64,000 nt of DNA from an uncultured bacterium (GTDB taxonomy: Bacteria; Acidobacteriota; Thermoanaerobaculia; Multivoradales; JAHZIX01): the NCBI GenBank assembly GCA_965368975.1, contig CBDUPA010000013.1:96001-160000 (forward strand). Direction: 5' to 3'. Below the pieces are notes generated by a model. The model ran no database searches. It saw only the letters and a program-made list of their open reading frames with translations, and was not told the DNA's origin. Of the stretch, positions 16,906-31,247 are shown piece after piece. The first letter of the stretch is position 1, and every line of letters begins with the position of its first letter. A program made the position numbers and the translations under genes.

Positions 16906-18420
16906 ATGGTCTTCAGCTCGCCCCTCTTCGTCTTCTACTTCCTGCCGCTGGCGCTGCTGACCTACTATGCCCTGCTGGCCGTCACCCGGCGCTCGAACTC
17001 GCCGGGCCTCCCCCTCCGGCACGTCGCCTTGACCCTGCTCAGCTACCTTTTCTACGGCTGGTCCAATCCCGCCTTCTGCCTGCTGATGCTGCTGTCGACG
17101 GGGATCGACTATCTGTGCGGCCTGGCGTTGGTCGGTCGCCTGGACCGCAGAGCGATCTTGGGCGTCGAGGACCTACCAAGGCTCGATCCTGAATGCGACC
17201 GGACGCGCGCCCAGAAGTGGGCGGTGACCGTGTCGGTGATCAGCAACCTGTCGCTGCTCGGCTTCTTCAAGTACTTCAATTTCGCCGTCGACAGCTACAC
17301 CGCACTCCTGGCTTCACTGGGCCTGGACGGAGCTAGTGCCGACACACTGCTGCGCGTCACGCTGCCGCTGGGCATCAGCTTCTACACCTTCCAGTCGATG
17401 AGCTACACGCTCGACGTCTACCGTGGCCAGACGGCACCGCTCGCCCGCTTCGTCGACTTCGCCTGCTACGTCTCGATGTTCCCGCAGCTGGTCGCCGGAC
17501 CGATCATCCGTTTCTCCGAGGTCGCCGAGCAACTGCGCGAGCGCACGCACACGCTCGAGAAGTTTTCCCGCGGCTGTGCCTTCTTCAGCCTTGGCATGGC
17601 CAAGAAGGTCCTGCTGGCCAATCCGTGCGGGCAGATCGCAGACCTGGTCTTCGACGCCGGCTCTGTGCACACGCTCGACGCCTGGTTCGGTCTCTTCGCC
17701 TACGGCTTCCAGATCTACTTCGACTTCAGCGGCTACTCGGACATGGCGATCGGCCTCGGCTTGATGCTCGGCTTCGTCTTCCCCAAGAACTTCGACTCCC
17801 CCTACAAGGCGCGCAGCGTCACCGATTTCTGGCGTCGCTGGCACATCTCGCTCTCCAGCTGGCTGCGCGACTATCTCTACATTCCCCTCGGCGGTAATCG
17901 CAAAGGCACGGCGCGCACCTACGTCAACTTGATGCTGGTGATGCTGCTCGGCGGCCTGTGGCACGGCGCGTCGTGGAACTTCGTCCTCTGGGGTGGGCTG
18001 CACGGCTTGTTTCTCGCTATTGAACGGATGCTGGGCAAGTCCAGTCCACTGCGTCGCTGGCCGATCGCGGCACAGGTCACCTTGACCTTCCTGCTGGTCA
18101 ACCTGCCGTGGGTCTTCTTCCGCGCCGAGACTCTCGACGGTGCCTTGGCTATGCTGGTCAGCCTGTGCGGTCTCGGTCCCCTCCTGCAAGGCGCAGACCC
18201 ACAGGCAGGCGCCACGCTCCTGGCCGGCTTGCTCTATACGCCGTACCACCTGATCTGCTTCAGCCTCGCCGCGCTCGTCACTTTCGGTGCGCCCCAAACC
18301 TGGGACTGGACGCGCCACCTCACACCCACGCGCGCCTTCGTCGCACTGCTGCTCTTTGCTCTCGCTCTGGTGTCCATGCTGAGCCAGGGCTACAACCCGT
18401 TCATCTATTTCATTTTCTGA
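16906..18420 (+). CDS. algI: MBOAT family O-acyltransferase (AlgI/PatA-like)
   Basis: MVFSS..F..YFLP, LPLGISFYTFQSMSY, FPQLVAGPIIR, QIYFDFSGYSDMAIGLG, FWRRWHISLSSWLRDYLYIPLGGNR, GLWHGA, C-terminal NPFIYFIF. Confidence 0.9.
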   Translation: MVFSSPLFVFYFLPLALLTYYALLAVTRRSNSPGLPLRHVALTLLSYLFYGWSNPAFCLLMLLSTGIDYLCGLALVGRLDRRAILGVEDLPRLDPECDRTRAQKWAVTVSVISNLSLLGFFKYFNFAVDSYTALLASLGLDGASADTLLRVTLPLGISFYTFQSMSYTLDVYRGQTAPLARFVDFACYVSMFPQLVAGPIIRFSEVAEQLRERTHTLEKFSRGCAFFSLGMAKKVLLANPCGQIADLVFDAGSVHTLDAWFGLFAYGFQIYFDFSGYSDMAIGLGLMLGFVFPKNFDSPYKARSVTDFWRRWHISLSSWLRDYLYIPLGGNRKGTARTYVNLMLVMLLGGLWHGASWNFVLWGGLHGLFLAIERMLGKSSPLRRWPIAAQVTLTFLLVNLPWVFFRAETLDGALAMLVSLCGLGPLLQGADPQAGATLLAGLLYTPYHLICFSLAALVTFGAPQTWDWTRHLTPTRAFVALLLFALALVSMLSQGYNPFIYFIF

Positions 18421-18430
18421 GCCCGGCGGC

Positions 18431-18568
18431 ACTCACTGAGGCACGAAAACTGAGTAAGTGGCTACCCACTTTCGAGGTCACGAGTACTCACTTCAGAGAT
18501 ACAGAATTTCTAGTCACTCAGGAATAGCCTGTATCTAGAGGGTTTTCGAAACTGGCACGGTCCTTGAA
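18431..18568 (+). promoter_or_regulatory. Candidate sigma-54 promoter with upstream enhancer-like repeats for the graspetide precursors
   Basis: CTGGCACGGTCCTTGAA at 18552-18568 (consensus -24 element, -12 GA variant). Imperfect palindrome TGAGTA-N6-TACCCA at 18451-18468; ACTCA half-sites at 18431, 18486 and 18516. Confidence 0.55.
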
Positions 18569-18683: not shown

Positions 18684-18839
18684 ATGAAGAAGCTAGAACG
18701 CGTCAACGGTGAACTGTTCGAGAGCCTGACCGTCGAGGAGACCCAGATGGTCGCCGGTGGTGCCGAAGGCACCGCGGAAGCCACCTACAACCAGACCTCC
18801 GGCTGGGATGCCAAGGCCGATATCAAGTTCAAGTTCTGA
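18684..18839 (+). CDS. Graspetide precursor A1 (51 aa): MKKLERVNGELFESLTVEETQMVAGG|AEGTAEATYNQTSGWDAKADIKFKF
   Basis: Hand-translated; AGGAG RBS; GG leader; upstream of the ATP-grasp maturase. Confidence 0.9.
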   Translation: MKKLERVNGELFESLTVEETQMVAGGAEGTAEATYNQTSGWDAKADIKFKF

Positions 18840-18894
18840 TCCTAGGCTCGTCAGCCACCTCTACTTCACCTTCTGATGCATCAGGGGAACCACC

Positions 18895-19059
18895 ATGAAG
18901 AAGACGAAACTGGAGCGTCTGCAGGGCAAACTCTTCGAGTCTCTGAGCACGGAGCAGGTCCAGATGACAGCCGGCGGCGGCACCTACGTGCTCGACTACA
19001 GCTACAACGAGACCGGCATCTATGACGCCCAAGGTCTTCCGGACGCCCTGTTCAAGTAG
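18895..19059 (+). CDS. Graspetide precursor A2 (54 aa): MKKTKLERLQGKLFESLSTEQVQMTAGG|GTYVLDYSYNETGIYDAQGLPDALFK
   Basis: Hand-translated; AGGGGA RBS; leader paralogous to A1/A3 (KLER...LFESL). Confidence 0.88.
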   Translation: MKKTKLERLQGKLFESLSTEQVQMTAGGGTYVLDYSYNETGIYDAQGLPDALFK

Positions 19060-19144
19060 TGCAACTCAAGCGGATCGCACAGTTGCATACCTCCGTCAGA
19101 TACCGCATCGAATCACGCACTGAATCAACCAAGAGGACAGACCC

Positions 19145-19303
19145 ATGAAGAAGAAGCTGGAACGGATGAACGAAGACTTGTTCGAGAGCCTGAGCGTCGA
19201 AGAAACCCAGATGGTCGCCGGTGGTGCCGAGGGCACCGCTGAGGCCACCTACAACCAGACCTCCGGCTGGGACGCCAAGGCCGACATCAAGTTCAAGTTC
19301 TGA
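19145..19303 (+). CDS. Graspetide precursor A3 (52 aa): MKKKLERMNEDLFESLSVEETQMVAGG|AEGTAEATYNQTSGWDAKADIKFKF
   Basis: Hand-translated; AGAGGA RBS; core identical to A1. Confidence 0.9.
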   Translation: MKKKLERMNEDLFESLSVEETQMVAGGAEGTAEATYNQTSGWDAKADIKFKF

Positions 19304-19318
19304 TTCACGTTTCGGTTC

Positions 19319-19367
19319 ACACAGAGACGGCGGAGAGCGGGAGTCTCCCTCTCCGCCGTCTCTGTGT
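19319..19367 (+). terminator. Perfect 19-bp stem-loop between precursors and maturase genes
   Basis: acacagagacggcggagag-N11-ctctccgccgtctctgtgt, followed by tcacgtttt. Confidence 0.75.
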
Positions 19368-19476
19368 TCACGTTTTCCGCTTCGTGTCGAGATCGGCTTG
19401 CCCCTGGGGCTCCACGACCGCCGAACTGATATCATGATGTTGCAGAAGCGGCCTGCGAGTTAGGGAAGGAAGGCCG

Positions 19477-20544
19477 ATGATCCTGATCCTCAGCCAGAGT
19501 GGTTTCGAGACCACCACCGAGCGGGTCATGGACTGGCTGGAAGCAGCTGGCGCCCCGCACCGGCGAGTGAACGGTCGTGATCTCAGTCGCGACGCTCGCC
19601 TCGATCTGCAGCTGGACGGCTGCGGCACGTCGCTGCGGCTGGAGAACGAGGGCGAACCGCTCGATCTCGATGCGGTCGATGCCGTGTGGGCTCGACGCTG
19701 GAGTGCCGATGCGCACCTCGAGACTCTCGGCTACTTCGAGCAGGGTGCCACGCCCGCGCCCCTACCCCACACTGCTTTCCAGATCCAGAAGCAGCTCAGC
19801 TTCGACCTGCACAAGCTCAGCGAGTTCTTCTTCGAACGCCTGCGAGACAGACCCTGGTTGACGCGACCGGGCACCATCAGTCCGAACAAGCTGACGGTCC
19901 TGGAGCGAGCCGTCGCTCACGGCATGGACATCCCGGCCACGCTGGTGACCACCGAGCGCGCGGCGGTGAGCTGTTTTGTCGAACGCTTCGAACGAGTGAT
20001 CACGAAGGTTGTCGGCGAGGTCGACATCTTTCCGTTCGAGGACGCGACGGCCATGCTCTATACCGCCCTCCTCGACGCCGCTGCGGTGGCAGCGCTGCCT
20101 GAGCACTTCTTCCCGTCGCTGTTCCAGGAGGCGGTGAGCAAGAGCTACGAAATCCGCGTCTTCTATCTCGACGGCCGGTGCGACGCCATGGCGATCTTCT
20201 CGCAGGCCGATGCGCAGACCGCTGCCGACTTTCGCAACTACAACTACCAGAAGCCCAACCGAAACGTCCCGTACCGCTTGCCGGCACGGCTCGAAACCAA
20301 GGTGCGCGCCTTGATGGACGAACTCGAGCTCGATACCGGCTCCCTCGACTTCATGAAGGCCCAGGACGGCCGCGACATCTTCCTCGAAGTCAATCCGGTG
20401 GGCCAGTTCGGCATGGTGTCGCTGCCCTGCAACTATCACCTGGAAAAGCAGGTGGCCGAGTACCTGGTGCGCCTGGCTACTGGATACGAGGCGGCGAGGC
20501 GACAGGAAGCAGCGGAGACGGAGGCGACCGGAGCTGAAGCATGA
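19477..20544 (+). CDS. gwsG: Grasp-with-SPASM system ATP-grasp peptide maturase
   Basis: MILILSQ...TTERVMDWL N-terminus; NKL.VL..A...G.DIPATLVT; FFPSLFQE.V.K.YEIRVFYL; MAIFSQ...T..DFR.YN..KPNR.VPY; FLEVNPVGQFGMVS.PCNY.LEK. Confidence 0.9.
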   Translation: MILILSQSGFETTTERVMDWLEAAGAPHRRVNGRDLSRDARLDLQLDGCGTSLRLENEGEPLDLDAVDAVWARRWSADAHLETLGYFEQGATPAPLPHTAFQIQKQLSFDLHKLSEFFFERLRDRPWLTRPGTISPNKLTVLERAVAHGMDIPATLVTTERAAVSCFVERFERVITKVVGEVDIFPFEDATAMLYTALLDAAAVAALPEHFFPSLFQEAVSKSYEIRVFYLDGRCDAMAIFSQADAQTAADFRNYNYQKPNRNVPYRLPARLETKVRALMDELELDTGSLDFMKAQDGRDIFLEVNPVGQFGMVSLPCNYHLEKQVAEYLVRLATGYEAARRQEAAETEATGAEA

Positions 20545-20762
20545 ACGAGCACGACGATGCACGCGCCTTCTTCCGCAGACTGAGCCCGCAGGCACAGGAA
20601 GAGGCGTCGATCCCCTATCGCTTCGCGGAGTTGCGCCGCCCCGAAGCCGTGGCGGTGCAACGCGTAGCGCAGAGTGACCACTATCGCAGCGACGCCTTCG
20701 AGTGCCGTGCCTTCCACAAGCCGATCTCCCGATGCTTTCCGCCCGTGGAGGAACCAGCATGA
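20541..20762 (+). CDS. Small hypothetical protein (73 aa) coupled between gwsG and gwsS
   Basis: ATGA overlaps at both ends (20541-20544 and 20759-20762). Confidence 0.65.
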   Translation: MNEHDDARAFFRRLSPQAQEEASIPYRFAELRRPEAVAVQRVAQSDHYRSDAFECRAFHKPISRCFPPVEEPA

Positions 20763-21793
20763 ATGGGGACCGCCGCTTCCGTCTCTTCGCGAACTGCATC
20801 CCTGTGCGCGGAGCCCGGCGCAGTGTGATCTGTGACCTGCAGCGAGGCAGCTATCGTTTCATCCCCAATGGCCTGTACGACATCCTCACCGCATACCCCG
20901 ACCGCACGCTGGACGAAATTCGAGCCGATTTCGAGGCCACCGAGCACGAGATCATCGACGAGTATTTCGATTTCCTGCTGCGCCACGAACTCGGCTTCTG
21001 GTGCGAGGAGCCGGAACGTTTTCCCGCTCTCGATCTCAGCTGGGAGGTGCCCCAGCGCATCACCAACGCCATCATCGATCTCGACGCAAGCTCCGAGCAC
21101 CAACACCCCAGCGCCTTCGCACAGCTGATCACGCAGCTCGACGACCTCGGTTGCAGAGCCTTGGAGCTGCGCGTATTCGCCGGCCTGGAACCCTCCCGAC
21201 TGCCAGCACTCCTCGCTACCTGCCAGCGCAGCCGCCTGCGCTCGATCGACCTGTTGACGCCCTACCAGGAAGGCATGCTCGATGATGACTGGCAGCAGCT
21301 GTGCCAGCAACATCCACGACTGAGCCAGATCGTGATCCACTCGGCGCCCGAGACACGCCGCATTCGCGTCGAGGGGACCGGCGTGCCCATCCACTACCGC
21401 CGCGAGCACATCAATGCGCCGAGCTGCTGCGGCCAGGTGCATCCGGGCTACTTCGTGTGCAACCTGAAGATGTTCACCGAGGCACAGACTCACAATACCT
21501 GCCTCAACCGCAAGCTGGCTGTCGATGCCGGCGGTGAGATCAAGAACTGCCCGTCCATGCCCCGCTCCTTCGGCAACGTTCGAGAGACATCTCTGCACAG
21601 CGCACTGGCGCACCGTGACTTCCCCCGCTGGTGGCGCGTGCACAAGGATCAGATCGACGTCTGCAAGGACTGTGAGTTCCGGTACCTGTGCACCGATTGC
21701 CGTGCCTACCTCAGCGATCGCGACAATCTCCTCTCCAAGCCCGCGAAGTGCACGTATGACCCCTACACGGCCAGCTGGGGATCGGCAAGCTGA
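20759..21793 (+). CDS. gwsS: Grasp-with-SPASM system SPASM-domain peptide maturase
   Basis: FRLFANCIPVRGARRSVICDLQR N-terminus; ITNAIID; NTCLNRK, NCPSM, CKDCEFRYLCTDCRAY, KPAKCTYDPY. Start placed at ATG 20759 (ATGA overlap, GGAGG RBS). Confidence 0.9.
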   Translation: MNGDRRFRLFANCIPVRGARRSVICDLQRGSYRFIPNGLYDILTAYPDRTLDEIRADFEATEHEIIDEYFDFLLRHELGFWCEEPERFPALDLSWEVPQRITNAIIDLDASSEHQHPSAFAQLITQLDDLGCRALELRVFAGLEPSRLPALLATCQRSRLRSIDLLTPYQEGMLDDDWQQLCQQHPRLSQIVIHSAPETRRIRVEGTGVPIHYRREHINAPSCCGQVHPGYFVCNLKMFTEAQTHNTCLNRKLAVDAGGEIKNCPSMPRSFGNVRETSLHSALAHRDFPRWWRVHKDQIDVCKDCEFRYLCTDCRAYLSDRDNLLSKPAKCTYDPYTASWGSAS

Positions 21794-21830: not shown

Positions 21831-23012
21831 TCAGCAAATGGCGTGCTGCCCTGTCCGTTCCTGCGCCCCTGAGGTGCGGATCCCATCGTCACCGTTCGCT
21901 TCCAGATCGTATTGGCGAATCTTGTTGAACAGCGTCTTGCGGCTGATTCCCAGGCTCTCGGCCGTGGCAGTGCGGTTCCCGTGGTAGATCAAGAGTCGAG
22001 ACAGAATCATCTGCTTCTCCACCTGCTCGGTCGCCTGCCCGACGGCCTCGGCCAGCGTCATCCGGTCCAACCGTTCGACCGATAGCCGGCCTTCGATCTT
22101 GCTGTGCCAGGCTGCCGAGATCGGCTTCTCAGGCTCGAGCAAACGTGCCGGCAAGTCCTCCTCCTGGAGGACGTCGGCGCTCGCCAGGACCATCGAGCGA
22201 CACAGAGTGTTCTCTAGCTCCCGTACGTTCCCCGGCCAGTCGTGGCGCACCAGGACGCGCATCGCCTCCGGGGTGATTCCCCGTATGCTCAAGCCGAGCT
22301 GGCGATTGATCTTGCTGACCAGGTAATTGCACAGCAAGGGAATGTCCTGGCGCCGCTCGCGCAGGGGCGGCAGCTCGACGTGCACCACGTTGAGCCTCCA
22401 GTACAGGTCATCCCGGAATCGCCCCTCGGCGACCTCCTGTTCGAGATTCTTGTTGGTCGCGGCCACCAGACGAACATCGACATCCCGCGGCTCACGCGCG
22501 CCGACCGGCGTATAGCGCCGCTCCTGCAGCACGCGCAAGAGCTTGGCCTGGGCATCAATCGCCAGATCTCCGACCTCGTCGAGGAAGAGAGTCCCGTGAT
22601 CAGCCTGCTCGAAGCGCCCGATGCGACTGTCTCGAGCGTCCGTGAAAGCGCCCTGGATGTGGCCGAAGAACTCACTCTCGACCAGGTTCTGCGGAATCGC
22701 GCTGCAATTGACCGCTACGAACGGACCGGCCACCCGCAAGCTGCCGCAGTGCAACGTCCGAGCCACCAGTTCCTTGCCGGTGCCCGACTCGCCGGTCACC
22801 AAGACCGTAGCGTCGACCCTGGCCACCTTGCTGACCGTGGCCAGCACCTGCTGGATCCCCGGACTGCGCCCGATCATCTGCGTCTCCTGCTGGCCGCAGT
22901 CCTGACGGCTGGGGCGCTGGCGGGGCGCCGGGGAAGCCTCGGACGAGGGCACCACCGAAGCGATGCCGGTTCGGCGGACTGAGGATCGATCCGCAACGGC
23001 TGAGGGAAGCAT
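21831..23012 (-). CDS. Sigma-54 enhancer-binding protein (AAA+ and Fis HTH) without a recognisable regulatory domain
   Basis: GESGTGKELVA, GAFTDA, LFLDEVGDL, FRDDLYWRLNVV, WPGNVRELEN, HTH 'GNRTATAESLGISRKTLFNKI'. GGAGGT RBS before ATG 23012. Confidence 0.9.
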   Translation of the reverse strand: MLPSAVADRSSVRRTGIASVVPSSEASPAPRQRPSRQDCGQQETQMIGRSPGIQQVLATVSKVARVDATVLVTGESGTGKELVARTLHCGSLRVAGPFVAVNCSAIPQNLVESEFFGHIQGAFTDARDSRIGRFEQADHGTLFLDEVGDLAIDAQAKLLRVLQERRYTPVGAREPRDVDVRLVAATNKNLEQEVAEGRFRDDLYWRLNVVHVELPPLRERRQDIPLLCNYLVSKINRQLGLSIRGITPEAMRVLVRHDWPGNVRELENTLCRSMVLASADVLQEEDLPARLLEPEKPISAAWHSKIEGRLSVERLDRMTLAEAVGQATEQVEKQMILSRLLIYHGNRTATAESLGISRKTLFNKIRQYDLEANGDDGIRTSGAQERTGQHAIC

Positions 23013-23141
23013 CGTTCTCACCTCCATCCATTCGTCCAGGTAGACGAGGTGTCCTAGCGCTTCACGTCTTCTAGGAGTTGCGCTGCCCCATGGAGCGCCT
23101 CCTACTCATCTAGTATACGCCTTCCGATTGCCGGCGCCAGT

Positions 23142-24059
23142 TCAAGACCTCGGCTTGCGAATCCGAGCGACCAGACCGTCTTGCAGCTTTACCCCAGAAG
23201 CTGCGGGCTCGAGTTCTGCCTCTACAAACACCAGTTGCGAGGCCGCGTCGACCTGGGGCGCGATCTGCGACACCGTGCCACGCAGCGTCAAATCCATGCC
23301 TTCCAGCGAGGCTTCAACGCGGTCGCCTGCCTGCAGGTGGCTGACGACCTGCGGCGGAACCGCGAAACGCAAGACGAAGTCGTCCGAAGCGATGAGCCGA
23401 AGCACGGGCGTGCCAGGGTGAACCTGGGCCCCGGGATCCAGGAAGCGGGCCGCAATGCGGCCGTCGATCGGGGCGCGCAGCACCGAGCGCTGGAGCCGGT
23501 TCTCCAGTTGCAGCACGTAGGCCGCCTGCTCAGCGACGCGGGCGCGGGCACTCTCGACGTCGGCCACTGCCATATCTCGCTCGCTGTGGCTGCTCTCCAA
23601 TTCTTCCTGCGCGAAGAGATCCGGCATCGTTCGGCGTCGGCGCAGCTGCTCCTCGGCTCGGCGCAACTCGACCTCGGCGCGGCGCACGTCGGCTGCCGCT
23701 GCTTGACGACTGGCCTGAGCTCGGGCCAGATCTTGCGTCAGCTCCTGGGTTTCCAGGCGGGCCAACGGCTGCCCCGTCAGCACCGCATCCCCGACCCGCA
23801 CGGCCACTTCGGCAAGCGTGCCGTCGACCTCGGCGCCCAGGTCGACAGCCTGCCGTGCTACCACCACGCCGATCCAGCGCCCCTGCTCCGGCTCTGCCGC
23901 GGTGCCCACACCTTCGACCTCTTGCCCGGGAAGCGTGGAGCTTGCAAGCGGCGCTGGTCCCCCATCGTCGGGCACCGGCTCGGCAGAGCATCCGGCAAGA
24001 CCGCTCAGAGCGCTGAGCAGACTGAGAACCACAACGAGAAAGCCTTTTCTTGCAGGCAT
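23142..24059 (-). CDS. Efflux membrane-fusion (periplasmic adaptor) lipoprotein
   Basis: Start at ATG 24059 gives a signal peptide with lipobox LAG-C; lipoyl half 'V.VRVGDAV..GQPLARL'; coiled coil; 'LRAPIDGRI'. Confidence 0.8.
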   Translation of the reverse strand: MPARKGFLVVVLSLLSALSGLAGCSAEPVPDDGGPAPLASSTLPGQEVEGVGTAAEPEQGRWIGVVVARQAVDLGAEVDGTLAEVAVRVGDAVLTGQPLARLETQELTQDLARAQASRQAAAADVRRAEVELRRAEEQLRRRRTMPDLFAQEELESSHSERDMAVADVESARARVAEQAAYVLQLENRLQRSVLRAPIDGRIAARFLDPGAQVHPGTPVLRLIASDDFVLRFAVPPQVVSHLQAGDRVEASLEGMDLTLRGTVSQIAPQVDAASQLVFVEAELEPAASGVKLQDGLVARIRKPRS

Positions 24060-24170
24060 TTGCGTCCCTCTCTCTCGGCGCGGTAGCGGTTGACGCTCAA
24101 CGCTGGTGGTTGATACCGTGAGTCCAGGTGCCATGTTGCAAGCCGGGTCCATCACCTGGGGAGGTACAAC

Positions 24171-26156
24171 GTGAACGCCGCATCAACAACTGTACCAGTT
24201 CCCACCTTGCTGCTGGGCTTTCCAGCACCGCTGCGGCATCAGCTCGTCGACGCACTCGCAGGCCTCGTCGAAGACCTGCAAGCCAGCCCCCAGGCGGCAG
24301 ACGACCGGGCTCCGGCGTTGGTCTGCCTCGGACCGGAGTTGCCGGGGTCGCAGGCAGCGACCTGGCTGGAGCATTCGTTGCCACCGCCGGCGGTGACGTC
24401 GGCGGTTGGCACGTCGGCGGTTGGCACGTCGGCAGTAGGTCAACCGTTGGTTCTCGTACTCGCCGGCGGCGACGATCTCAGCCTTTTTCAGCCCTGGCTC
24501 GACGCCGATCAGCTCTACTACTTGAGCCCAGGGCCGCCACCGCCAGCGCAGCTCACGGCCCTCCTACGGAGCGCGGCGCAGCATTGCCGTGCCGCCACCC
24601 GGATGGCCGCAGGTATGGCACCTTCCGCTGCCCTCTCCGGCCCCCCGGCCACGGGTCTGACGCAGCCGGCAGTACAGCAAGCGCTTCGCCGCCTGGGTTT
24701 GCAGGATGATCCAGGCGATGGAGCCGAATTGCTGTCCGAAGCCGTCCGAGAGAGCGTTCGCGCCGATGGCGGTGTCTGCTGGCTGCACGACACCCGCGAT
24801 CAGAGCTTGTGGACACGCGACAGCAGCAGCGGTGGCGAACGCCGCCACAGCGCCAGTGTCGGCCTGACCAGCTTCGTCCTGCGCAGTGGTCTGGCCCTGT
24901 CTCTGCGACGCTCGAGCGAGGATCAGCGCTTCGACCCGGAAGCCGATGCTGTGGTGCTGCACTCAGGGCCCGCGGCCGTCAGCGAGGAGGACGCGGCAGA
25001 CCGATGGCTCGCCGTGCCGGTCAGGGCGCCGGCGGCAGACGGCGAGATCCACGGGCCCGTGATCGCCGTGCTGGTTGCCCAGCGCCACGGCAATCGTGCT
25101 GCCTTCAACCCTCACGACCAGCGAGTGCTGGAGCAGCTGGCGACGGCCGCGGCTCCCCACGTACTGGCCCTGGTCGAAGGCGATGCCACGCCCGAGCTCG
25201 AGGTCCCCCAGGCGGCCGCCGACCTGTTCCGCCGCGAGGCCCTGCGCGACTCGCTCCTGGGCCACGAGAGTGCTCGCGATCCGCTAATGCTGTCCCCGAC
25301 CTGGACACGCTGGTCCTACCGCCTGCTGGTGGCGGCGCTCGGTGCGGCGTTGCTGTTCTCGCTCGTCTTCGAGGTCGGCGAGTATGCCCGCGGTATCGCC
25401 GTGATCACCCTCGGCGGCCGTACCGACCTGACCGCCGTCGCCGCCGGAACCGCACAAGCCGTCGAAGTCGAACCCGGAGACGCGGTATCGGCCGGCCAGG
25501 TGCTGGTGCGGTTCTATGAGGCCGGCGAGCTGGCCGAGCTGGAGCGTATCGACCGCGAGATCGAGCTGCACCTGATCAACCGCCTACGCTTTCCCGCGGA
25601 TCCAGCCTCGGAGCAAGCTCTGCTGTCCCTGCGAGCGCAGCGTGAGCTGGCCACGGCACGCCTCGAGGAGCGCTCGCTCCGCGCCCCGGTGAGCGGCAGG
25701 ATCAGCGACCTGCGCGTGCGGGCCGGCCAGTACCTGACGCCCGGGCAACTCCTGCTGTCCGTGCTCCACGAAGATAGCGTGCCGAAGGCGGTCATTCTGC
25801 TACCTGGCGAGTACCGACCGCTGGTGCAAGAGGGGATGCGCGTGCGCCTGGAGATCTCCGGATACAACTATGCCTACCAGCTGCTGGACGTTGAGCAGGT
25901 GAGCGAGAACGTCGTCGGTCCGAACGAAGCTCGGCGCTACCTGAGCGAGGGCGTCGCCGACACGGTTCGTGTGCCGGGGCCCGTCGTCCTGCTCGAGGCC
26001 GCTTTGCCCTCGCTGACCTTCCAGGCTGACGGCGACATCTACCAGTACCACAACGGCATGCTCGGAACCGCCGAGGTTCGCGTACGGTCCGAGAAAATCC
26101 TGTTCACCCTCGTGCCCGGACTGAAAGCCGCGCTCACTTTCGCCAACGGGAGCTGA
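24171..26156 (+). CDS. GAF-domain / HlyD-family secretion adaptor fusion
   Basis: GAF-like segment (GLTSFVLRSG...DQRFDPEAD...WLAVPV...VIAVLVA...AFNPHDQRVLEQLA), then 'LFRREAL', TM helix, lipoyl/coiled coil and C-terminal 'GMLGTAEVRVRSEKILFTLVPGLK'. Confidence 0.8.
   Translation: MNAASTTVPVPTLLLGFPAPLRHQLVDALAGLVEDLQASPQAADDRAPALVCLGPELPGSQAATWLEHSLPPPAVTSAVGTSAVGTSAVGQPLVLVLAGGDDLSLFQPWLDADQLYYLSPGPPPPAQLTALLRSAAQHCRAATRMAAGMAPSAALSGPPATGLTQPAVQQALRRLGLQDDPGDGAELLSEAVRESVRADGGVCWLHDTRDQSLWTRDSSSGGERRHSASVGLTSFVLRSGLALSLRRSSEDQRFDPEADAVVLHSGPAAVSEEDAADRWLAVPVRAPAADGEIHGPVIAVLVAQRHGNRAAFNPHDQRVLEQLATAAAPHVLALVEGDATPELEVPQAAADLFRREALRDSLLGHESARDPLMLSPTWTRWSYRLLVAALGAALLFSLVFEVGEYARGIAVITLGGRTDLTAVAAGTAQAVEVEPGDAVSAGQVLVRFYEAGELAELERIDREIELHLINRLRFPADPASEQALLSLRAQRELATARLEERSLRAPVSGRISDLRVRAGQYLTPGQLLLSVLHEDSVPKAVILLPGEYRPLVQEGMRVRLEISGYNYAYQLLDVEQVSENVVGPNEARRYLSEGVADTVRVPGPVVLLEAALPSLTFQADGDIYQYHNGMLGTAEVRVRSEKILFTLVPGLKAALTFANGS
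24396..24440 (+). repeat. 15-nt tandem repeat x3 (TSAVG)
   Basis: acgtcggcggttggc x2 plus acgtcggcagtaggt. Confidence 0.7.
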
Positions 26157-26158
26157 AC

Positions 26159-28468
26159 ATGCGCGACGCCGACAACCACGACAGCGGCAGGAACCCCGAA
26201 CACAGGGGCGGTACCGAGCCCACTGACGCGAGCGACAGCCTGCCGCTGTGGCAACGCTGGCCCGCCTTCCTCGGCGTCGACCTGTTGCGGCGACGCGCCA
26301 AACTGCGCTTCGTACAGCAAACTGCCGCCACGGACTGTGGCGCGGCCTGCCTGGCCATGGTGCTCAGCTACCACGGCAAGAACCTGCGTCTCAATGAGGT
26401 CCGCGAGGTCATGAGCGTCAGCCGCATGGGTGTCGACGCCTTCACCATCTTGGAAACCGGCCGCCACTTCGGTCTGCGTGGCCGTGCCCTCAAAGTGCGT
26501 GAGGTCGCGCACCTGCGCTATCTCGACCCGGGTGCCGTGCTGCACTGGCGGTTCAATCACTTCGTGGTTCTCGAACGCATCGAGAAGCGCGGCGCCTGGG
26601 TCGTCGATCCCGCCGTCGGCCGGCGCCTGATCCCATGGCCCGAACTGGGTCGTGCCTTCACCGGCGTCGCCCTGGTGTTCGAAACTAGCGAGGACTTCGA
26701 ACCTCTGCCGGCGGACCAGAAAGGCGTCTGGCGGTACCTGCGCCAGTTGCTCAGCCAGAGCGGCCTGCTCACCCGTATCTTGGTGACGTCCCTGCTGATC
26801 CAGCTGCTGGCACTGTCGGTGCCGGTGCTCACGGGCCTACTGGTCGACCGCGTGGTGCCACGTGGTGACCACAACCTGCTGCTGGTCCTGGTGGCCGGAG
26901 CCGCCGGCATCGTCGGCTTCAAGCTGCTCGCCGGCCTGGTGCGCTCCTTCCTCCTGCTCTTCCTGCGCACCCGTCTGGACGCCCGCATGACCGTGCAGTT
27001 CCTGGAGCATCTGGTTGCGCTGCCCTACCTGTTTTTCCAGCAGCGTTCCTCGGGCGATCTGATGATGCGCCTGAACAGCAACGCGGTGGTGCGCGAGATC
27101 CTCACTTCTGGCGCCATCTCGGGCATCTTCGACGGCGCCATGGTCTCTCTCTACCTCTTGCTGCTGCTGGCCGCCAACACCAAGATAGGGCTGGTGGTAG
27201 CCTTGCTCGGCCTGCTCCAAGTAGCTGTCTTCCTGGTGACTCGCAAACGCCAAGCCGAGCTGATGACCGAGACCCTGCAGACGCAGGCCGACGCCCGTGG
27301 CTTCGAGGTCCAGTTGCTGTCCGGCATCGAGACCCTGAAGTCGAGCGGCGCGGAGTTCCGCGCCGTCGAGCGCTGGTCGCACCTCTTCGTGCGCGAGCTC
27401 AACGTCTCGCTCGACCGCGGCCGGCTGGATGCCGGTGTCAACTCCGTGCTCGACGCCCTGGCCACCGGCGCACCGCTAGCCGTGCTGCTCTACGGTAGCC
27501 ACCTGGTGCTCGCCGGCGAACTCACCCTCGGCACCATGCTGGCGCTCAGCGCTCTGGCCCAGGGCTTCCTGGGCCCGCTGGCGACCCTGGTTCACACCTC
27601 CTTCCAACTGCAGCTTCTGGGTAGCTACCTGGAACGCCTCAACGACGTGCTGGAGACGCCGCGCGAACAGGAGAGTACCGAGAAGCGCATCGATGTCGGC
27701 GCCCTGCGTGGCCAGGTACGGGTCGACGAGGTGAGCTTCCGCTATGCTCCGATGGCGGCGCCCGCGGTTGCTGGAGTCAGCCTGGACATCCGTCCGGGAC
27801 AGCTGGTCGCCCTGGTCGGTTCTTCAGGCTCCGGCAAGTCGACCCTCGCCGGCCTGCTCGCCGGTCTCTACCGCCCAGACAGCGGCCGTATCCTGTTCGA
27901 CGGCCTGAGCTTGGCCGAGGCCGACTTGCGCCAGCTGCGCGGCCAGCTCGGTTTCGTGCCGCAGCACAGCTTCCTCTTCGGCATGAGCGTGCGCGCCAAC
28001 ATCGCGCTCAACGACCCGTCCCTGCCCCTCTCCCGGATCATCGAAGCGGCGCGCATGGCACAGATCCACGACGACATCTTGACCATGCCCATGGGCTATG
28101 AATCCCTGCTCGCCGATGGTGGCGCCTCGCTCTCCGGCGGCCAGCGCCAGCGGCTGGCGCTGGCCCGCGCCCTGGTACACCGCCCCAAGGTGTTGATTCT
28201 CGACGAGGCCACTAGCGCCCTGGATGCGGTCACCGAGGCGAGGATCCAGCAGAACCTGGCGCGCCTACGCTGCACCCGCATCGTCGTCGCGCATCGCCTG
28301 AGCACCATCCGTGACGCCAACCGCATCGTGGTCCTCGATCGTGGTCACTTGATCGAACACGGCAGCCACGACGAGCTCATGGCAGCACGAGGCAAGTATC
28401 ATGAGCTGGTCACGGCGCAACTACAGAAGAGCCAGGCCGCCACAATCGCCCCAGAATTGACCCCTTGA
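26159..28468 (+). CDS. Peptidase-containing ABC transporter (C39 PCAT)
   Basis: QQTAATDCGAACLAMVL, LHWRFNHFVV, VVDPAVG; GSSGSGKST, LSGGQRQR, LILDEATSALD. Confidence 0.93.
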   Translation: MRDADNHDSGRNPEHRGGTEPTDASDSLPLWQRWPAFLGVDLLRRRAKLRFVQQTAATDCGAACLAMVLSYHGKNLRLNEVREVMSVSRMGVDAFTILETGRHFGLRGRALKVREVAHLRYLDPGAVLHWRFNHFVVLERIEKRGAWVVDPAVGRRLIPWPELGRAFTGVALVFETSEDFEPLPADQKGVWRYLRQLLSQSGLLTRILVTSLLIQLLALSVPVLTGLLVDRVVPRGDHNLLLVLVAGAAGIVGFKLLAGLVRSFLLLFLRTRLDARMTVQFLEHLVALPYLFFQQRSSGDLMMRLNSNAVVREILTSGAISGIFDGAMVSLYLLLLLAANTKIGLVVALLGLLQVAVFLVTRKRQAELMTETLQTQADARGFEVQLLSGIETLKSSGAEFRAVERWSHLFVRELNVSLDRGRLDAGVNSVLDALATGAPLAVLLYGSHLVLAGELTLGTMLALSALAQGFLGPLATLVHTSFQLQLLGSYLERLNDVLETPREQESTEKRIDVGALRGQVRVDEVSFRYAPMAAPAVAGVSLDIRPGQLVALVGSSGSGKSTLAGLLAGLYRPDSGRILFDGLSLAEADLRQLRGQLGFVPQHSFLFGMSVRANIALNDPSLPLSRIIEAARMAQIHDDILTMPMGYESLLADGGASLSGGQRQRLALARALVHRPKVLILDEATSALDAVTEARIQQNLARLRCTRIVVAHRLSTIRDANRIVVLDRGHLIEHGSHDELMAARGKYHELVTAQLQKSQAATIAPELTP

Positions 28469-30183
28469 TGGCCCCCCACGACCACGAAGCCCGCCGCATC
28501 GCACAAGCTCACGTCCAGGCCGGTCGTACCGACGTCTCGCGCGGCACGGCCGGAGTTCTCCTGGTCGCTTTCCTCCTGCTGCTCGGGCTACCGCCCCTGC
28601 TGCACCACGACCTCCTCGGGTTCCTGGGCTGGACCCTGCCGGCGGCTTCGCACCCCGACAGCGAGCCTTTCGCCGACTTCGCGCTCAATCTGCCCGGCGC
28701 GCTACTCACCGATGGTCTGCTGGTCAAGAACCGGGCCGTGCAACGGGAACTACGACGCTTTGAGGACGAGTTGGACCGGGAGTTCCATCCTGCCCGTGCC
28801 CTGCGCCCTCACGTGCAATCCCTCTTGCTGCACCTGCGCCAAGGCAATCTCGAGGCCCTTGTCGGTGCCGACACCGGCAGCGGTCCCTGGCTCTACTTCC
28901 GTCCGGACGTGAGCTACCTCACCGGTCCCGGCTTCCTGGAGCCCGCGGTCCTGGCAGCTCGACGCCGGAGTACCGAGAGCTGGCAGGCGCCCCCCGAACC
29001 GGACCCGCGGCCGGCACTGCTACAGTTGCATCGGGAGCTGGCTGAGCGGGGTATCGACTTGGTTCTCTTGCCAACCCCCGTCAAGCCGATGCTGCATCCG
29101 GAAGGCTTTGCGGCTGGCGCCGAGTTGGGCGTGAGGGAGCTGCAGAATCCGTCCTGGAAGCACTTCCTGGCCGACCTGGAAGCGGCCGGCGTCGAGGTCC
29201 TGCTCCCCTGGCGGTTCGACCACGAACAGCAGCAGATCCAACACCCGCCGCTCTCGTCTCTGCGTACGGACACTCACTGGACGCCCGGCAGCGTCGAGAC
29301 GACCGCGACCGCCCTGGCGGAGCGCCTGGCTGGCCGCGTCCCGGCACTGCGTACACCACGGTTGGCGCGTGCCGATGTGCAAACCCAAACCGGTCTCGGC
29401 GACCTTGCCCGCATGTTGCAGCTGCCTGCGTCGCAGCAGCAGATCGGCGCAGAAACCATCACGACCCGCCCTATCGTCAGCGTCGACGGCAAGCCCTGGC
29501 AGTCCGCTCCGGATGCAGCAGTGCTCCTGCTCGGCGACAGCTTCACCAACGTCTACAGCCAGGCTGACCTCGGCTGGGGCGCTGGTGCCGGCCTGGCGGA
29601 GCAGCTGAGCTTCGAGCTGCAGGTGCCGGTGCAACGCCTGGCGGTCAATGACGGCAGTGACCTCGCCGTACGCCAGCGCTTGGCCGCGCTGCCTGCGGAG
29701 CGCTTCGAAACGCTCCGGGTCGTCGTCTACCAGTTCGCTGTGCGCGAGCTGACCACCGGCGACTGGCGTCCCGTGCCTCTGCCCGTGGGAGGGGCAGCAG
29801 CAGCGGCAGAGACAAACAAGACGACTTTCACCGGCCTGGAGCCCCTGCGTCTGGAGGCGAGACTCGCGAGTGCACCCGATCTGCCGAGTCCCGCCGAGCT
29901 TCCCTATCGCGACGGCATCGTCGGCCTGGTGCTGCGCGACCTGTCGACGCCGAACGCCGCTCCGAGTTTGCCGGAGGAAATCCTCCTCTACACCTGGTGG
30001 CTGCGCGACGGCAACCTGACCGCCGCCGCCAGCTGGGCTCCCGGACGCAAGCTCGAACTCGACATCGTCCCCTGGGCATCCGTGGCCCCGGACCTGGACA
30101 GCTACCAACGCGTCGAACCGGACGATCCCGAGGCCTTCCTGCTCGACGCCTACTGGACAGACCTGCCAGAATCGTCACCATGA
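28468..30183 (+). CDS. AlgJ/AlgX-like SGNH O-acetyltransferase
   Basis: N-terminal TM; WLYFRPD; 'L..RGIDLVLLPTPVKP'; RTDTHWT; GDLARML; VLLLGDSF. Confidence 0.8.
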   Translation: MAPHDHEARRIAQAHVQAGRTDVSRGTAGVLLVAFLLLLGLPPLLHHDLLGFLGWTLPAASHPDSEPFADFALNLPGALLTDGLLVKNRAVQRELRRFEDELDREFHPARALRPHVQSLLLHLRQGNLEALVGADTGSGPWLYFRPDVSYLTGPGFLEPAVLAARRRSTESWQAPPEPDPRPALLQLHRELAERGIDLVLLPTPVKPMLHPEGFAAGAELGVRELQNPSWKHFLADLEAAGVEVLLPWRFDHEQQQIQHPPLSSLRTDTHWTPGSVETTATALAERLAGRVPALRTPRLARADVQTQTGLGDLARMLQLPASQQQIGAETITTRPIVSVDGKPWQSAPDAAVLLLGDSFTNVYSQADLGWGAGAGLAEQLSFELQVPVQRLAVNDGSDLAVRQRLAALPAERFETLRVVVYQFAVRELTTGDWRPVPLPVGGAAAAAETNKTTFTGLEPLRLEARLASAPDLPSPAELPYRDGIVGLVLRDLSTPNAAPSLPEEILLYTWWLRDGNLTAAASWAPGRKLELDIVPWASVAPDLDSYQRVEPDDPEAFLLDAYWTDLPESSP

Positions 30184-31247
30184 AGACCTGCTGCCTCAGC
30201 CTTGCCTTGCTCCTTCTCGCCTGTACACCAGCTACGCCAGCGGCACCCGAAGAAGCTGCACCAACTGAGGAGGTGCCAGCTGAAGCCGAGTCAGCTAAAG
30301 CCAAGCGAGCAGGAGAGGAGCAAGCCCGCTTCGTAGAGTACTTGCGCGGCCTGCTCGCGCCGTCGACCGACAGGCGTACGATCCAGGGCCAGAGCGGCTG
30401 GCTCTACTTCCAGCCCGAACTGAGCTCGCTGACCGTCGAAGAGATCCGCGAGCCACTGGCTGCGATCCTCGACTTCCACCGCCAGTTGCAGGAACGCGGC
30501 GTCGAGTTGTTGTTCGCGCCCATCCCGGCCAAGGCCGCCGTCTACCCCGATCACCTGCCCGGTGCGCCCACCTTTGCACAGCCCCTCCCCAGGTTGGATA
30601 CGGTCCACGGTGAGTTCCTGGAGACCCTGCGGGAGCAAGGAGTCCCCGTTGTCGACCTGCTGCCGCTCTTCCTTGAACACCGCGATGACACCGAAGGTGC
30701 GATGCACTGCCGTCAAGACACGCACTTCTCCGGCCGCGCGACGGTCTTGATCGCACATTCTCTCGCCGAGCTGGTGCGGCAACGGGCTTGGTGGCAGGAG
30801 GTCGAGACCGGCCGTTTTGAGCCTGCCGGCCTTGCACGGGAGACCCGTCAGGTGACGATCGAGGGTGACCTCCGGCGCGAGTTGCCACCGCCCCAGCCCG
30901 CCGCCGAAACCTTGTCGCTGACCTTCGTCGGCCGTCGCGAAGGCGACGCCTTGTTGCCAATACCGCCGGACCGAGACAGCCCTATCCTCCTTCTCGGCGA
31001 CAGCCACACCCTGGTGTTCCACACCGGCGGCGATCTGCACGCCAAGGGTGCCGGCTTGGTCGACCAGCTCGCTTTCGAACTCGGCATGCCACTGGACCTG
31101 ATCGGCGTCCGTGGCTCCGGCGCCACGTCGTCGCGCGTCAACCTGCTGCGTCGCGGCGGCGTCGAGGGCAAGAAGCTGGTGATCTGGGTGCTGACGGCGC
31201 GGGAGTTGACGGAAGGGGATTGGAAACAGGTGCCGGTATCGCGCTAA
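30180..31247 (+). CDS. AlgX/AlgJ-like SGNH O-acetyltransferase, lipoprotein
   Basis: Start ATG 30180 (ATGA overlap), signal MKTCCLSLALLLLAC; GWLYF; PIPAKAAVYPD; QDTHFS; ILLLGDSH. Confidence 0.8.
   Translation: MKTCCLSLALLLLACTPATPAAPEEAAPTEEVPAEAESAKAKRAGEEQARFVEYLRGLLAPSTDRRTIQGQSGWLYFQPELSSLTVEEIREPLAAILDFHRQLQERGVELLFAPIPAKAAVYPDHLPGAPTFAQPLPRLDTVHGEFLETLREQGVPVVDLLPLFLEHRDDTEGAMHCRQDTHFSGRATVLIAHSLAELVRQRAWWQEVETGRFEPAGLARETRQVTIEGDLRRELPPPQPAAETLSLTFVGRREGDALLPIPPDRDSPILLLGDSHTLVFHTGGDLHAKGAGLVDQLAFELGMPLDLIGVRGSGATSSRVNLLRRGGVEGKKLVIWVLTARELTEGDWKQVPVSR

Follow-up and report, generated by a model that had tools for sequence, protein, structure and literature searches.

Which of the residues that face one another across a short and very regular core peptide does the ligase encoded beside it join? 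The question is raised by a biosynthetic locus in a 64,000 bp stretch of DNA (the window; positions 96,001 to 160,000 of contig CBDUPA010000013.1, assembly GCA_965368975.1) from an uncultured bacterium of the Thermoanaerobaculia (phylum Acidobacteriota). Three small precursor genes, called here A1, A2 and A3, are followed by genes for an ATP-grasp ligase of the graspetide type, a 73 amino acid protein and a SPASM-domain protein (Table 1). An earlier note on this DNA proposed that one ligase staples the A1/A3 core into an amphipathic β-hairpin with up to two lactones and two lactams, in a four-rung ladder of E2-K22, T4-D20, E6-K18 and T8-D16. The hairpin register and the graspetide context are borne out below, but the number and kind of staples are not; two ester rungs are probable, and two Thr-Asp staples are more likely than four mixed ones. 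To the more specific reading, in which nested T8-D16 and T4-D20 esters enclose an ion pair of E6 and K18, we give about an even chance.

The DNA concerned (bp 18,762–19,300) runs from the first base of A1 core codon 1 to the final coding base of A3. All three precursors have leaders of the type MKK... L-F-E-S-L ... E ... G-G, and the 25 residues that follow the GG site are identical in A1 and A3 (AEGTAEATYNQTSGWDAKADIKFKF; numbered as in the earlier note). Ribosome-binding sites are recognizable by eye ahead of each gene, that of A1 being AGGAG-like. The A2 protein is also present in a public protein collection (as P0002), and the A3 leader weakly matches Pfam PF14406 Bacteroid_pep (20.2 bits, under the 25-bit cut-off). 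Codons of the A1 and A3 cores differ by five synonymous and no non-synonymous changes; the leaders differ by five synonymous and five amino-acid-changing ones (one of the latter is the Met/Lys offset from the extra residue of A3). Because its differences are synonymous only, the core is a real product under purifying selection. Both marker proteins of the grasp-with-spasm system score above their curated cut-offs at this locus, and the position of A1, A2 and A3 beside a bona fide graspetide ATP-grasp ligase supports their assignment as GG-leader graspetide precursors.

In the A1/A3 core every acidic residue does lie opposite a nucleophile when positions are paired at i+j=24 (E2/K22, T4/D20, E6/K18 and T8/D16), and the other face is small or hydrophobic, with A, G, A, A and Y at odd positions of the first strand and W, A, A, I, F and F at those of the second. 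Polar residues occupy each of the nine even strand positions and apolar or aromatic ones each of the 11 odd positions, a contrast that none of 100,000 composition-preserving shuffles equaled. Four acid/nucleophile pairs in any single register arose in 2.1% of 200,000 such shuffles of the core, and four consecutive i,i+2 rungs in 0.043%; these tests were devised after the pattern had been noticed. Since both strands carry period-4 patterns, register 28 (three pairs, E6/K22, T8/D20 and T12/D16) and register 20 (two pairs) are also partly complementary; A1 alone leaves register 24 unfixed, and it is A2 and the homologues that fix it. Counted from its third Gly, the divergent paralog A2 has T2/D22, S8/D16 and Y9/Y15, as had been claimed. 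Relative to A1, T4/D20 has become V4/L20 and E2/K22 has become T2/D22, with the register and the donor-first pairs retained (donor meaning the hydroxyl or amine residue, and acceptor the acid). Register 24 is the only one that gives at least two pairs with the donor N-terminal in both A1 and A2; 1.7% of shuffled pairs do likewise. T4 and T8 are separated by three residues, as are D16 and D20; in A2 five residues separate T2 from S8 and D16 from D22. Judged by sequence, A1/A3 and A2 thus share the equal spacing and donor-N-terminal order of stem-loop (nested) graspetides. An AlphaFold model of the precursor (three-sequence alignment; mean predicted local distance difference test score, pLDDT, 67.8, and 71–75 in the core blocks) places strands at residues 27–36 and 40–49, which are core positions 1–10 and 14–23 and symmetric about core residue 12. 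Together with the homologues' conserved rungs 8/16, 6/18 and 4/20, these observations uphold register 24 and support an amphipathic two-strand unit with that hairpin register.

Homologues of A1 bear most directly on which rungs matter. A word-based search with A1 alone recovered only A1 itself (one of one candidate), and searching the Protein Atlas with it yielded nothing usable. A profile of A1, A3 and A2, used in a full hidden Markov model search of 1.84 billion representatives, gave nine matches at E≤0.001; a second search, with a profile built from 10 sequences, matched 12 proteins at E≤1 out of 522 candidates, and a cluster look-up then added two more. One of the matches, P0007, a 550-residue repeat protein, was a spurious match to the leader and was set aside. 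Nine distinct A1-like cores resulted (A1, P0003, P0004, P0008 and P0011–P0015), seven of them tabulated by script and two (P0014 and P0015) read by eye. P0012 is named by NCBI as deriving from a Thermoanaerobaculia metagenome-assembled genome (MAG), and P0004 and P0014 lie on one 7,558-base contig, presumably in tandem.

The four pairs fare very differently in these nine cores. Pair 8/16 is Thr/Asp in all nine, pair 6/18 is Glu/Lys in seven and Asp/Lys in two, and pair 4/20 is Thr/Asp in seven, Cys/Asp in one and Thr/Thr in one. The Cys4 of P0013 opposite Asp20 would be a candidate natural thioester rung, or else a rung loss. Pair 2/22, on the other hand, is Glu/Lys in two, Glu/Arg in three, Asp/Arg in one, Asp/Thr in one and Thr/Thr in two, so that position 22 is Lys in two, Arg in four and Thr in three; with Arg or Thr there the outer rung cannot be a conserved lactam, and E2-K22 as a conserved rung has to be given up. 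All four A1 pairs recur in P0008. Among 23 positions, T8, D16, K18 and I21 alone are invariant in the seven tabulated cores, and the C-terminal strand is otherwise well conserved there (A17 and D20 in six of seven, A19 in five and I21 in seven). Position 12 is Thr in two of the seven, Ala in four and Ser in one, and Ala in the two cores read by eye. Three more distant proteins were also read by eye. P0005 has T10/D17, R8/E19, T6/D21 and E4/R23 in one register, so its Thr/Asp pairs alternate with Arg/Glu pairs in either orientation; P0006 has T8/D14 and T2/D20 with Thr/Ser pairs in between; and P0010 has T8/D16.

The precursor leader type and the ligase travel together beyond this host. When 300 genomes of the host's order were searched in six frames, the precursor profile matched in 19. 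Outside the host, 26 of 28 leader matches share a contig with a TIGR04192 match no more than about 2 kb away (judged by eye), and the remaining two are both in one genome, G1044, with no ligase match listed; by this co-location the leader family belongs to TIGR04192 ligases. Sister loci (mostly in one family of the order, f7; L045 and L049–L071) have the same ligase, small ORF (open reading frame), SPASM protein and leader type as the window, whereas their cores are unrelated to that of A1 and, read by eye, have at most one Lys, none of it in the acceptor strand, and no acid/Lys rung. In the f7 loci the precursor follows the SPASM gene, and its consensus has four invariant Thr and then four invariant acids, a pattern that predicts a four-rung, all-ester ladder in L045 and L049–L071. 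Further features of these cores are an R-D-G-D motif and, in the turn, Pro-x-Pro. The two cores of a related genome (G010) have T5, T10, D19 and D23 in common. Acids lie C-terminal to the hydroxyl residues in 18 of 20 cores of a first set and in 23 of 24 distinct cores from the same order; in 23 of the latter 24 donor-first pairs outnumber reversed ones, and only one has at least two Lys. By this polarity and scarcity of Lys the A1-like cores stand apart as outliers: acids occur on their first strand and Lys on their second. Contig scans with the ligase found three loci, all in Bacteroidota MAGs, and a metagenome scan found three more, all with unrelated cores; the Bacteroidota cores cannot be aligned, so they allow no general test of i+j covariation, in agreement with the account of this group by Makarova et al. 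(2022, PMC8939145). A triplet of an aromatic residue or Val, then Asn, then Asp, Glu or Gln, mostly after Thr, Ser or Val, occurs in A1, A2, both G010 precursors, L038 and L047; it recurs in otherwise unrelated cores and may be a recognition element.

A plausible course of events in the two-ester reading is as follows. The ligase would bind the leader through its conserved part (L-F-x-x-L ... E ... G-G), phosphorylate the Asp side chains of the C-terminal strand and join them to Thr/Ser hydroxyls of the N-terminal strand, in the usual direction with the donor N-terminal. In A1/A3 the inner T8-D16 ester would close first and the outer T4-D20 ester second; in A2 the esters would be S8-D16 and T2-D22 in the same i+j=24 stem-loop. 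The seven-residue loop (positions 9–15) would be bracketed by the conserved aromatic pair 9/15. E6/K18 would be a conserved cross-strand ion pair between the esters, as is the Arg/Glu pair in the fuscimiditide stem, E2/K22 a variable and dispensable outer one, and the apolar odd positions would form the other face. The SPASM protein and the 73 amino acid protein might take part in a second, undefined step or act as chaperones, and the C39 exporter should cut after GG and export the product.

Several observations weigh against this reading. Position 6 is acidic and position 18 Lys in nine of nine cores, and K18 is never Arg even though Lys and Arg interchange at position 22; a plain salt bridge is expected to tolerate Arg, so the invariance of K18 argues against an ion pair. 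One core has lost T4/D20, and another has Cys/Asp in its place. The nine cores are closely related (10 to 17 of 23 positions as in A1) and their counts are thus not independent, and the eight homologous cores are known from protein sequences alone, not from their genomic context. The donor-direction rule is carried over to this ligase group from other graspetide groups, and the AlphaFold model, built from a three-sequence alignment, is of moderate confidence.

The same invariance is the mainstay of a three-rung product, in which a reversed E6-K18 lactam (acid N-terminal to Lys) lies between the T8-D16 and T4-D20 esters. We consider it unlikely and retain it because acid 6 and Lys18 never vary and Arg is never found at 18, while position 22 ranges over Lys, Arg and Thr. 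The two residues are cross-strand neighbors on the same face in register 24, between two conserved Thr/Asp pairs, and there are graspetide ligases that form amides as well as esters (PMC13097080). The window's ligase also scores higher against the amide-ligase model MvdC (151.4 bits) than against MvdD (118.3 bits), which is weak evidence. Against the lactam, the donor precedes the acceptor in all mapped graspetides according to the available text of Choi et al. (2023, bioRxiv 10.1101/2023.06.21.545981), and no product was obtained from fuscimiditide when its two stems were exchanged (PMC12291112). Sister cores have the usual polarity in 23 of 24 cases and at least two Lys in one of 24; A2 has D6 opposite Q18, and P0005, P0006, P0009 and P0010 are without the pair. 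Moreover, the whole C-terminal strand is highly conserved, so K18 may be invariant for recognition or target binding.

Some other connectivity is a little more doubtful still: T8-D16 might be the only ester, the links might run in register 28 (T12-D16 with T8-D20), they might interlock as in microviridins, or a SPASM-dependent modification might define the product. In favor of this, no donor/acceptor pair other than T8/D16 is invariant, and A1 has two pairs with the donor first in register 28. The solved ligases nearest to this one produce microviridins, which are interlocked, and no chemistry can be assigned to the SPASM protein. On the other side, T4/D20 is retained in seven of nine cores and A2 has just one pair in register 28. 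T12 is poorly conserved (Thr in two, Ala in six and Ser in one of the nine cores), and register 28 was set aside on that account. T-x-K-x-P-S-D is the microviridin-type motif. It was not found in the precursor sequences, which were read by eye.

The complete four-rung ladder of the earlier note, in which E2-K22 and E6-K18 lactams alternate with T4-D20 and T8-D16 esters, is very unlikely. Its four pairs are all present in A1/A3 and P0008 and its periodicity is rare among shuffles, but 2/22 is an acid/Lys pair in just two of nine cores and both lactams would have the reversed polarity; that polarity has not been seen in any mapped graspetide according to Choi et al., and engineering it into fuscimiditide yielded no product. 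Least probable of all is that A1, A2 and A3 are no substrates of the ligase but double-glycine peptides of a bacteriocin-like kind that stay unmodified and just use the same exporter. This view is favored by leader-only matches (weak, all under cut-off) to bacteriocin and lantibiotic leader models and by an amphipathic, cationic C-terminal strand that could act on membranes without modification. Against it stand the 26 of 28 leaders of this type that adjoin TIGR04192 ligases elsewhere in the order, and the fact that no core positions are better conserved than those of the donors and acceptors.

Table 1. Features of the grasp-with-spasm locus (window coordinates, except in the last two lines)
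Feature	Position	Strand	Remarks
Sigma-54-type promoter-like site	18553..18567	+	TGGCAC-N5-TTGA; 117 nt 5' of A1 start codon
Precursor A1	18684..18839	+	51 aa; leader 18684-18761 ending GG; core 18762-18836
Precursor A2	18895..19059	+	54 aa; divergent paralog, same leader type; core with S8/D16 and T2/D22
Precursor A3	19145..19303	+	52 aa; core same as A1
Long stem-loop	19319..19367	+	19 + 3 pairs; between precursor genes and ligase gene
ATP-grasp graspetide ligase (gwsG of the earlier note)	19477..20544	+	TIGR04192 GRASP_w_spasm, 281.9 bits (cut-off 230)
73-aa ORF	20541..20762	+	conserved partner directly 5' of SPASM gene (position of LPL family)
SPASM-domain peptide maturase (gwsS of the earlier note)	20759..21793	+	TIGR04193, 335.8 bits (cut-off 175)
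Sigma-54-dependent transcriptional activator	21831..23027	-	Pfam Sigma54_activat 231.9 bits and HTH_8; matches from about residue 50
Membrane-fusion (HlyD/RND adaptor) protein	23142..24155	-	TIGR01730, 120.1 bits (cut-off 94.9)
GAF domain fused to HlyD-type adaptor	24171..26156	+	Pfam GAF 30.3 bits, HlyD_3 43.8 bits
Peptidase-C39 ABC exporter (PCAT)	26159..28468	+	Pfam Peptidase_C39 100.7 bits, ABC_membrane, ABC_tran
73-aa ORF counterpart, locus L027	5868-6101	-	conserved in position and sequence
73-aa ORF counterpart, locus L045	6019-6255		conserved in position and sequence

The ligase also matches the MvdD pre-ATP-grasp domain of Pfam (PF21068), and the closest solved structures to a 15-sequence profile of it are the microviridin and chryseoviridin ligases 7m4s, 5ig9, 5ig8 and 7mgv (E from 5e-49 to 3e-41). 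The 73 amino acid protein has no Pfam or NCBIfam match. It is 35% identical to the ORFs at the same position in G010 and in the metagenome locus L045, the position being kept in all three loci compared, and it has an invariant C-terminal F-x-K-P-I-S-x-C and two invariant Cys. At the place where G010 has L-P-L in the alignment the window protein has I-P-Y, and it probably corresponds to the "LPL" family that Makarova et al. placed upstream of SPASM genes.

The SPASM protein is more puzzling. Its probable start is the ATG at bp 20,759, which overlaps the stop codon of the 73 amino acid ORF; the TIGR04193 match begins at residue 26 of a longer ORF that starts with GTG. Its only domain match is to the SPASM model TIGR04085 (residues 270–341), with no Pfam match at E≤0.01 and no match at E≤1 in a profile search of solved structures. 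The N-terminal CxxxCxxC of radical SAM enzymes was not found across three aligned homologues, in which the invariant N-terminal Cys are C13, C25 and C82; with neither that motif nor a radical SAM domain match, the protein does not qualify as a radical SAM/SPASM maturase. Its AlphaFold model (mean pLDDT 50.2) was too poor for a fold search. A SPASM protein of no assignable chemistry acting beside Cys-free cores is an unexplained combination.

A long stem-loop separates the last precursor gene, A3, from that of the ligase. The folding energy of bp 19,301–19,400 is -50.4 kcal/mol (z = -5.17), and none of 200 shuffles was as good. A simple terminator scan did not call it, because neither its stem nor its T-run conforms to the rules applied there; it is a probable partial terminator or processing/stability element and could determine how much precursor transcript there is relative to enzyme transcript. 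The sigma-54-type site upstream of A1 has one mismatch to TGGCACNNNNNTTGC, and with seven such matches in the window against 5.05 expected it is not significant alone; given its position and the activator encoded in the cluster, we take it as a lead only. No receiver domain was matched in that activator by the family model scans.

The exporter's best NCBIfam match is TIGR03796 (631.7 bits, under the 853.3-bit cut-off), and the GAF-HlyD protein beside it is an unusual sensor-adaptor fusion. The 572 amino acid ORF that follows the exporter was considered as a counterpart of the 498 amino acid ORF of the G010 locus and is not related to it. On one side of the cluster is an MBOAT/DltB-like acyltransferase (bp 16,906–18,420) and on the other are two AlgX-like SGNH proteins (bp 28,465–31,247), parts of a polysaccharide O-acetylation module, so that its 10 kb are placed as if inserted into that module; GC content shows no island signature. 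Elsewhere in the host genome there are four more ATP-grasp matches under the TIGR04192 cut-off, two of them in tandem, on contigs C7 (133,760–135,342), C18 (56,244–56,774) and C5 (70,022–70,642), which suggests other graspetide-type clusters.

The TIGR04192 family was counted in several sets of genomes. Two of 41 relatives (host included) score over the curated cut-off, the host and G010; among 401 sampled genomes of the host's phylum the host is the only one, against 10 in an equal number from the phylum to which a Bacteroidota MAG belongs. In the host's own order, which is a separate sample from that phylum, 27 of 300 genomes match at E≤1e-50 and 26 exceed the cut-off; in family f7 the family occurs in 25 of 92 genomes. 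Grasp-with-spasm is therefore not restricted to Bacteroidetes.

Grasp-with-spasm clusters are a large graspetide group defined by bioinformatics alone, and this locus is a member of it from a non-Bacteroidota lineage. The A1 core is short, Cys-free and highly regular, its eight natural variants act as a mutational series, and the locus makes it testable which rungs close, whether the donor-first rule holds at an invariant acid/Lys pair, and what the SPASM protein and its small partner do. Should the ligase close just two esters, the product would be a stem-loop of the ordinary fuscimiditide kind, from a lineage new for it. A tentative and rather improbable alternative is that the ligase joins acid 6 to Lys18 between the two esters and that a SPASM protein without a radical SAM motif adds a second step on a Cys-free core. 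Were the reversed lactam real, it would be a first among graspetide cross-links in having its acceptor N-terminal to the donor, and it would mean that a pre-stapled hairpin lets an ATP-grasp ligase act on either strand.

Among described systems, the locus as a whole is closest to Branch 5 of Makarova et al. (PMC8939145), in which hypervariable precursors of the MKK/GG type accompany a ligase and a TIGR04193 SPASM protein, the latter with a small "LPL" protein encoded upstream. The window shares with it a ligase and SPASM protein over both cut-offs, a small ORF directly 5' of the SPASM gene, several divergent MKK-type GG-leader precursors per locus, and a C39 exporter with an HlyD-type adaptor. 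It differs in its host, since Branch 5 was termed highly specific for Bacteroidetes, and in the lack of Cys in its cores, unlike many Branch 5 cores. In the RODEO classification (Carter et al. 2026, PMC13097080) the cluster is probably "group 14", the group said there always to be accompanied by a SPASM-domain protein, while other groups have been characterized; our literature search found no experimental characterization or determined product for the grasp-with-spasm group.

The microviridins (ligases MdnB/MdnC and AMdnB) and chryseoviridin (CdnC) have the closest solved ligases by profile and mix esters with amides, as the ladder of the earlier note would. Their rings, however, are interlocked into a cage-like form and not nested, and their Lys donor is N-terminal to its Glu. 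Marinomonasin-like precursors have a conserved C-terminal Lys after the acceptors (PMC9576775), so a reversed lactam may already exist among them.

The stem-loop ladder class, with two to five Thr-Asp rungs (2026 review, PMC13001092), offers a further comparison. Albusimiditide has four nested esters (T19-D32, T17-D34, T11-D40 and T9-D42), as amycolimiditide also has four nested rungs (10.1101/2023.06.21.545981), and albusimiditide rungs lie on alternate residues, i,i+2 as in A1; all are Thr-Asp esters with the donor N-terminal, and these peptides are actinobacterial and contain aspartimide. The earlier note did not recognize its ladder among described graspetides. Nested ladders, four rungs and alternate-residue spacing are in fact known, and it is mixed ester/amide ladders and reversed polarity that do not figure in these texts. 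The pattern T-x-charged-x-T ... D-x-charged-x-D is also that of the fuscimiditide stem (TMRVT...DVEKD; PMC12291112), which has two esters.

Fuscimiditide is a parallel to the two-ester reading of A1. Its two nested Thr-Asp esters have three residues between them on each strand and a charged cross-strand pair mid-stem, and the counterpart in A1 would be T4-A-E-A-T8 ... D16-A-K-A-D20. The charge orientation is reversed, with the acid on the N-terminal strand in A1 and the base there in fuscimiditide. Fuscimiditide further differs from the window in its ligase subfamily, and the window's ligase has a SPASM partner. Methyltransferase models matched none of the ten cluster proteins scanned, and loop residues 9–15 of A1 contain no Asp, so the aspartyl O-methyltransferase and loop Asp that mark a graspimiditide are both missing; with no O-methyltransferase identified and no Asp-Gly in the loop, no aspartimide is expected in A1.

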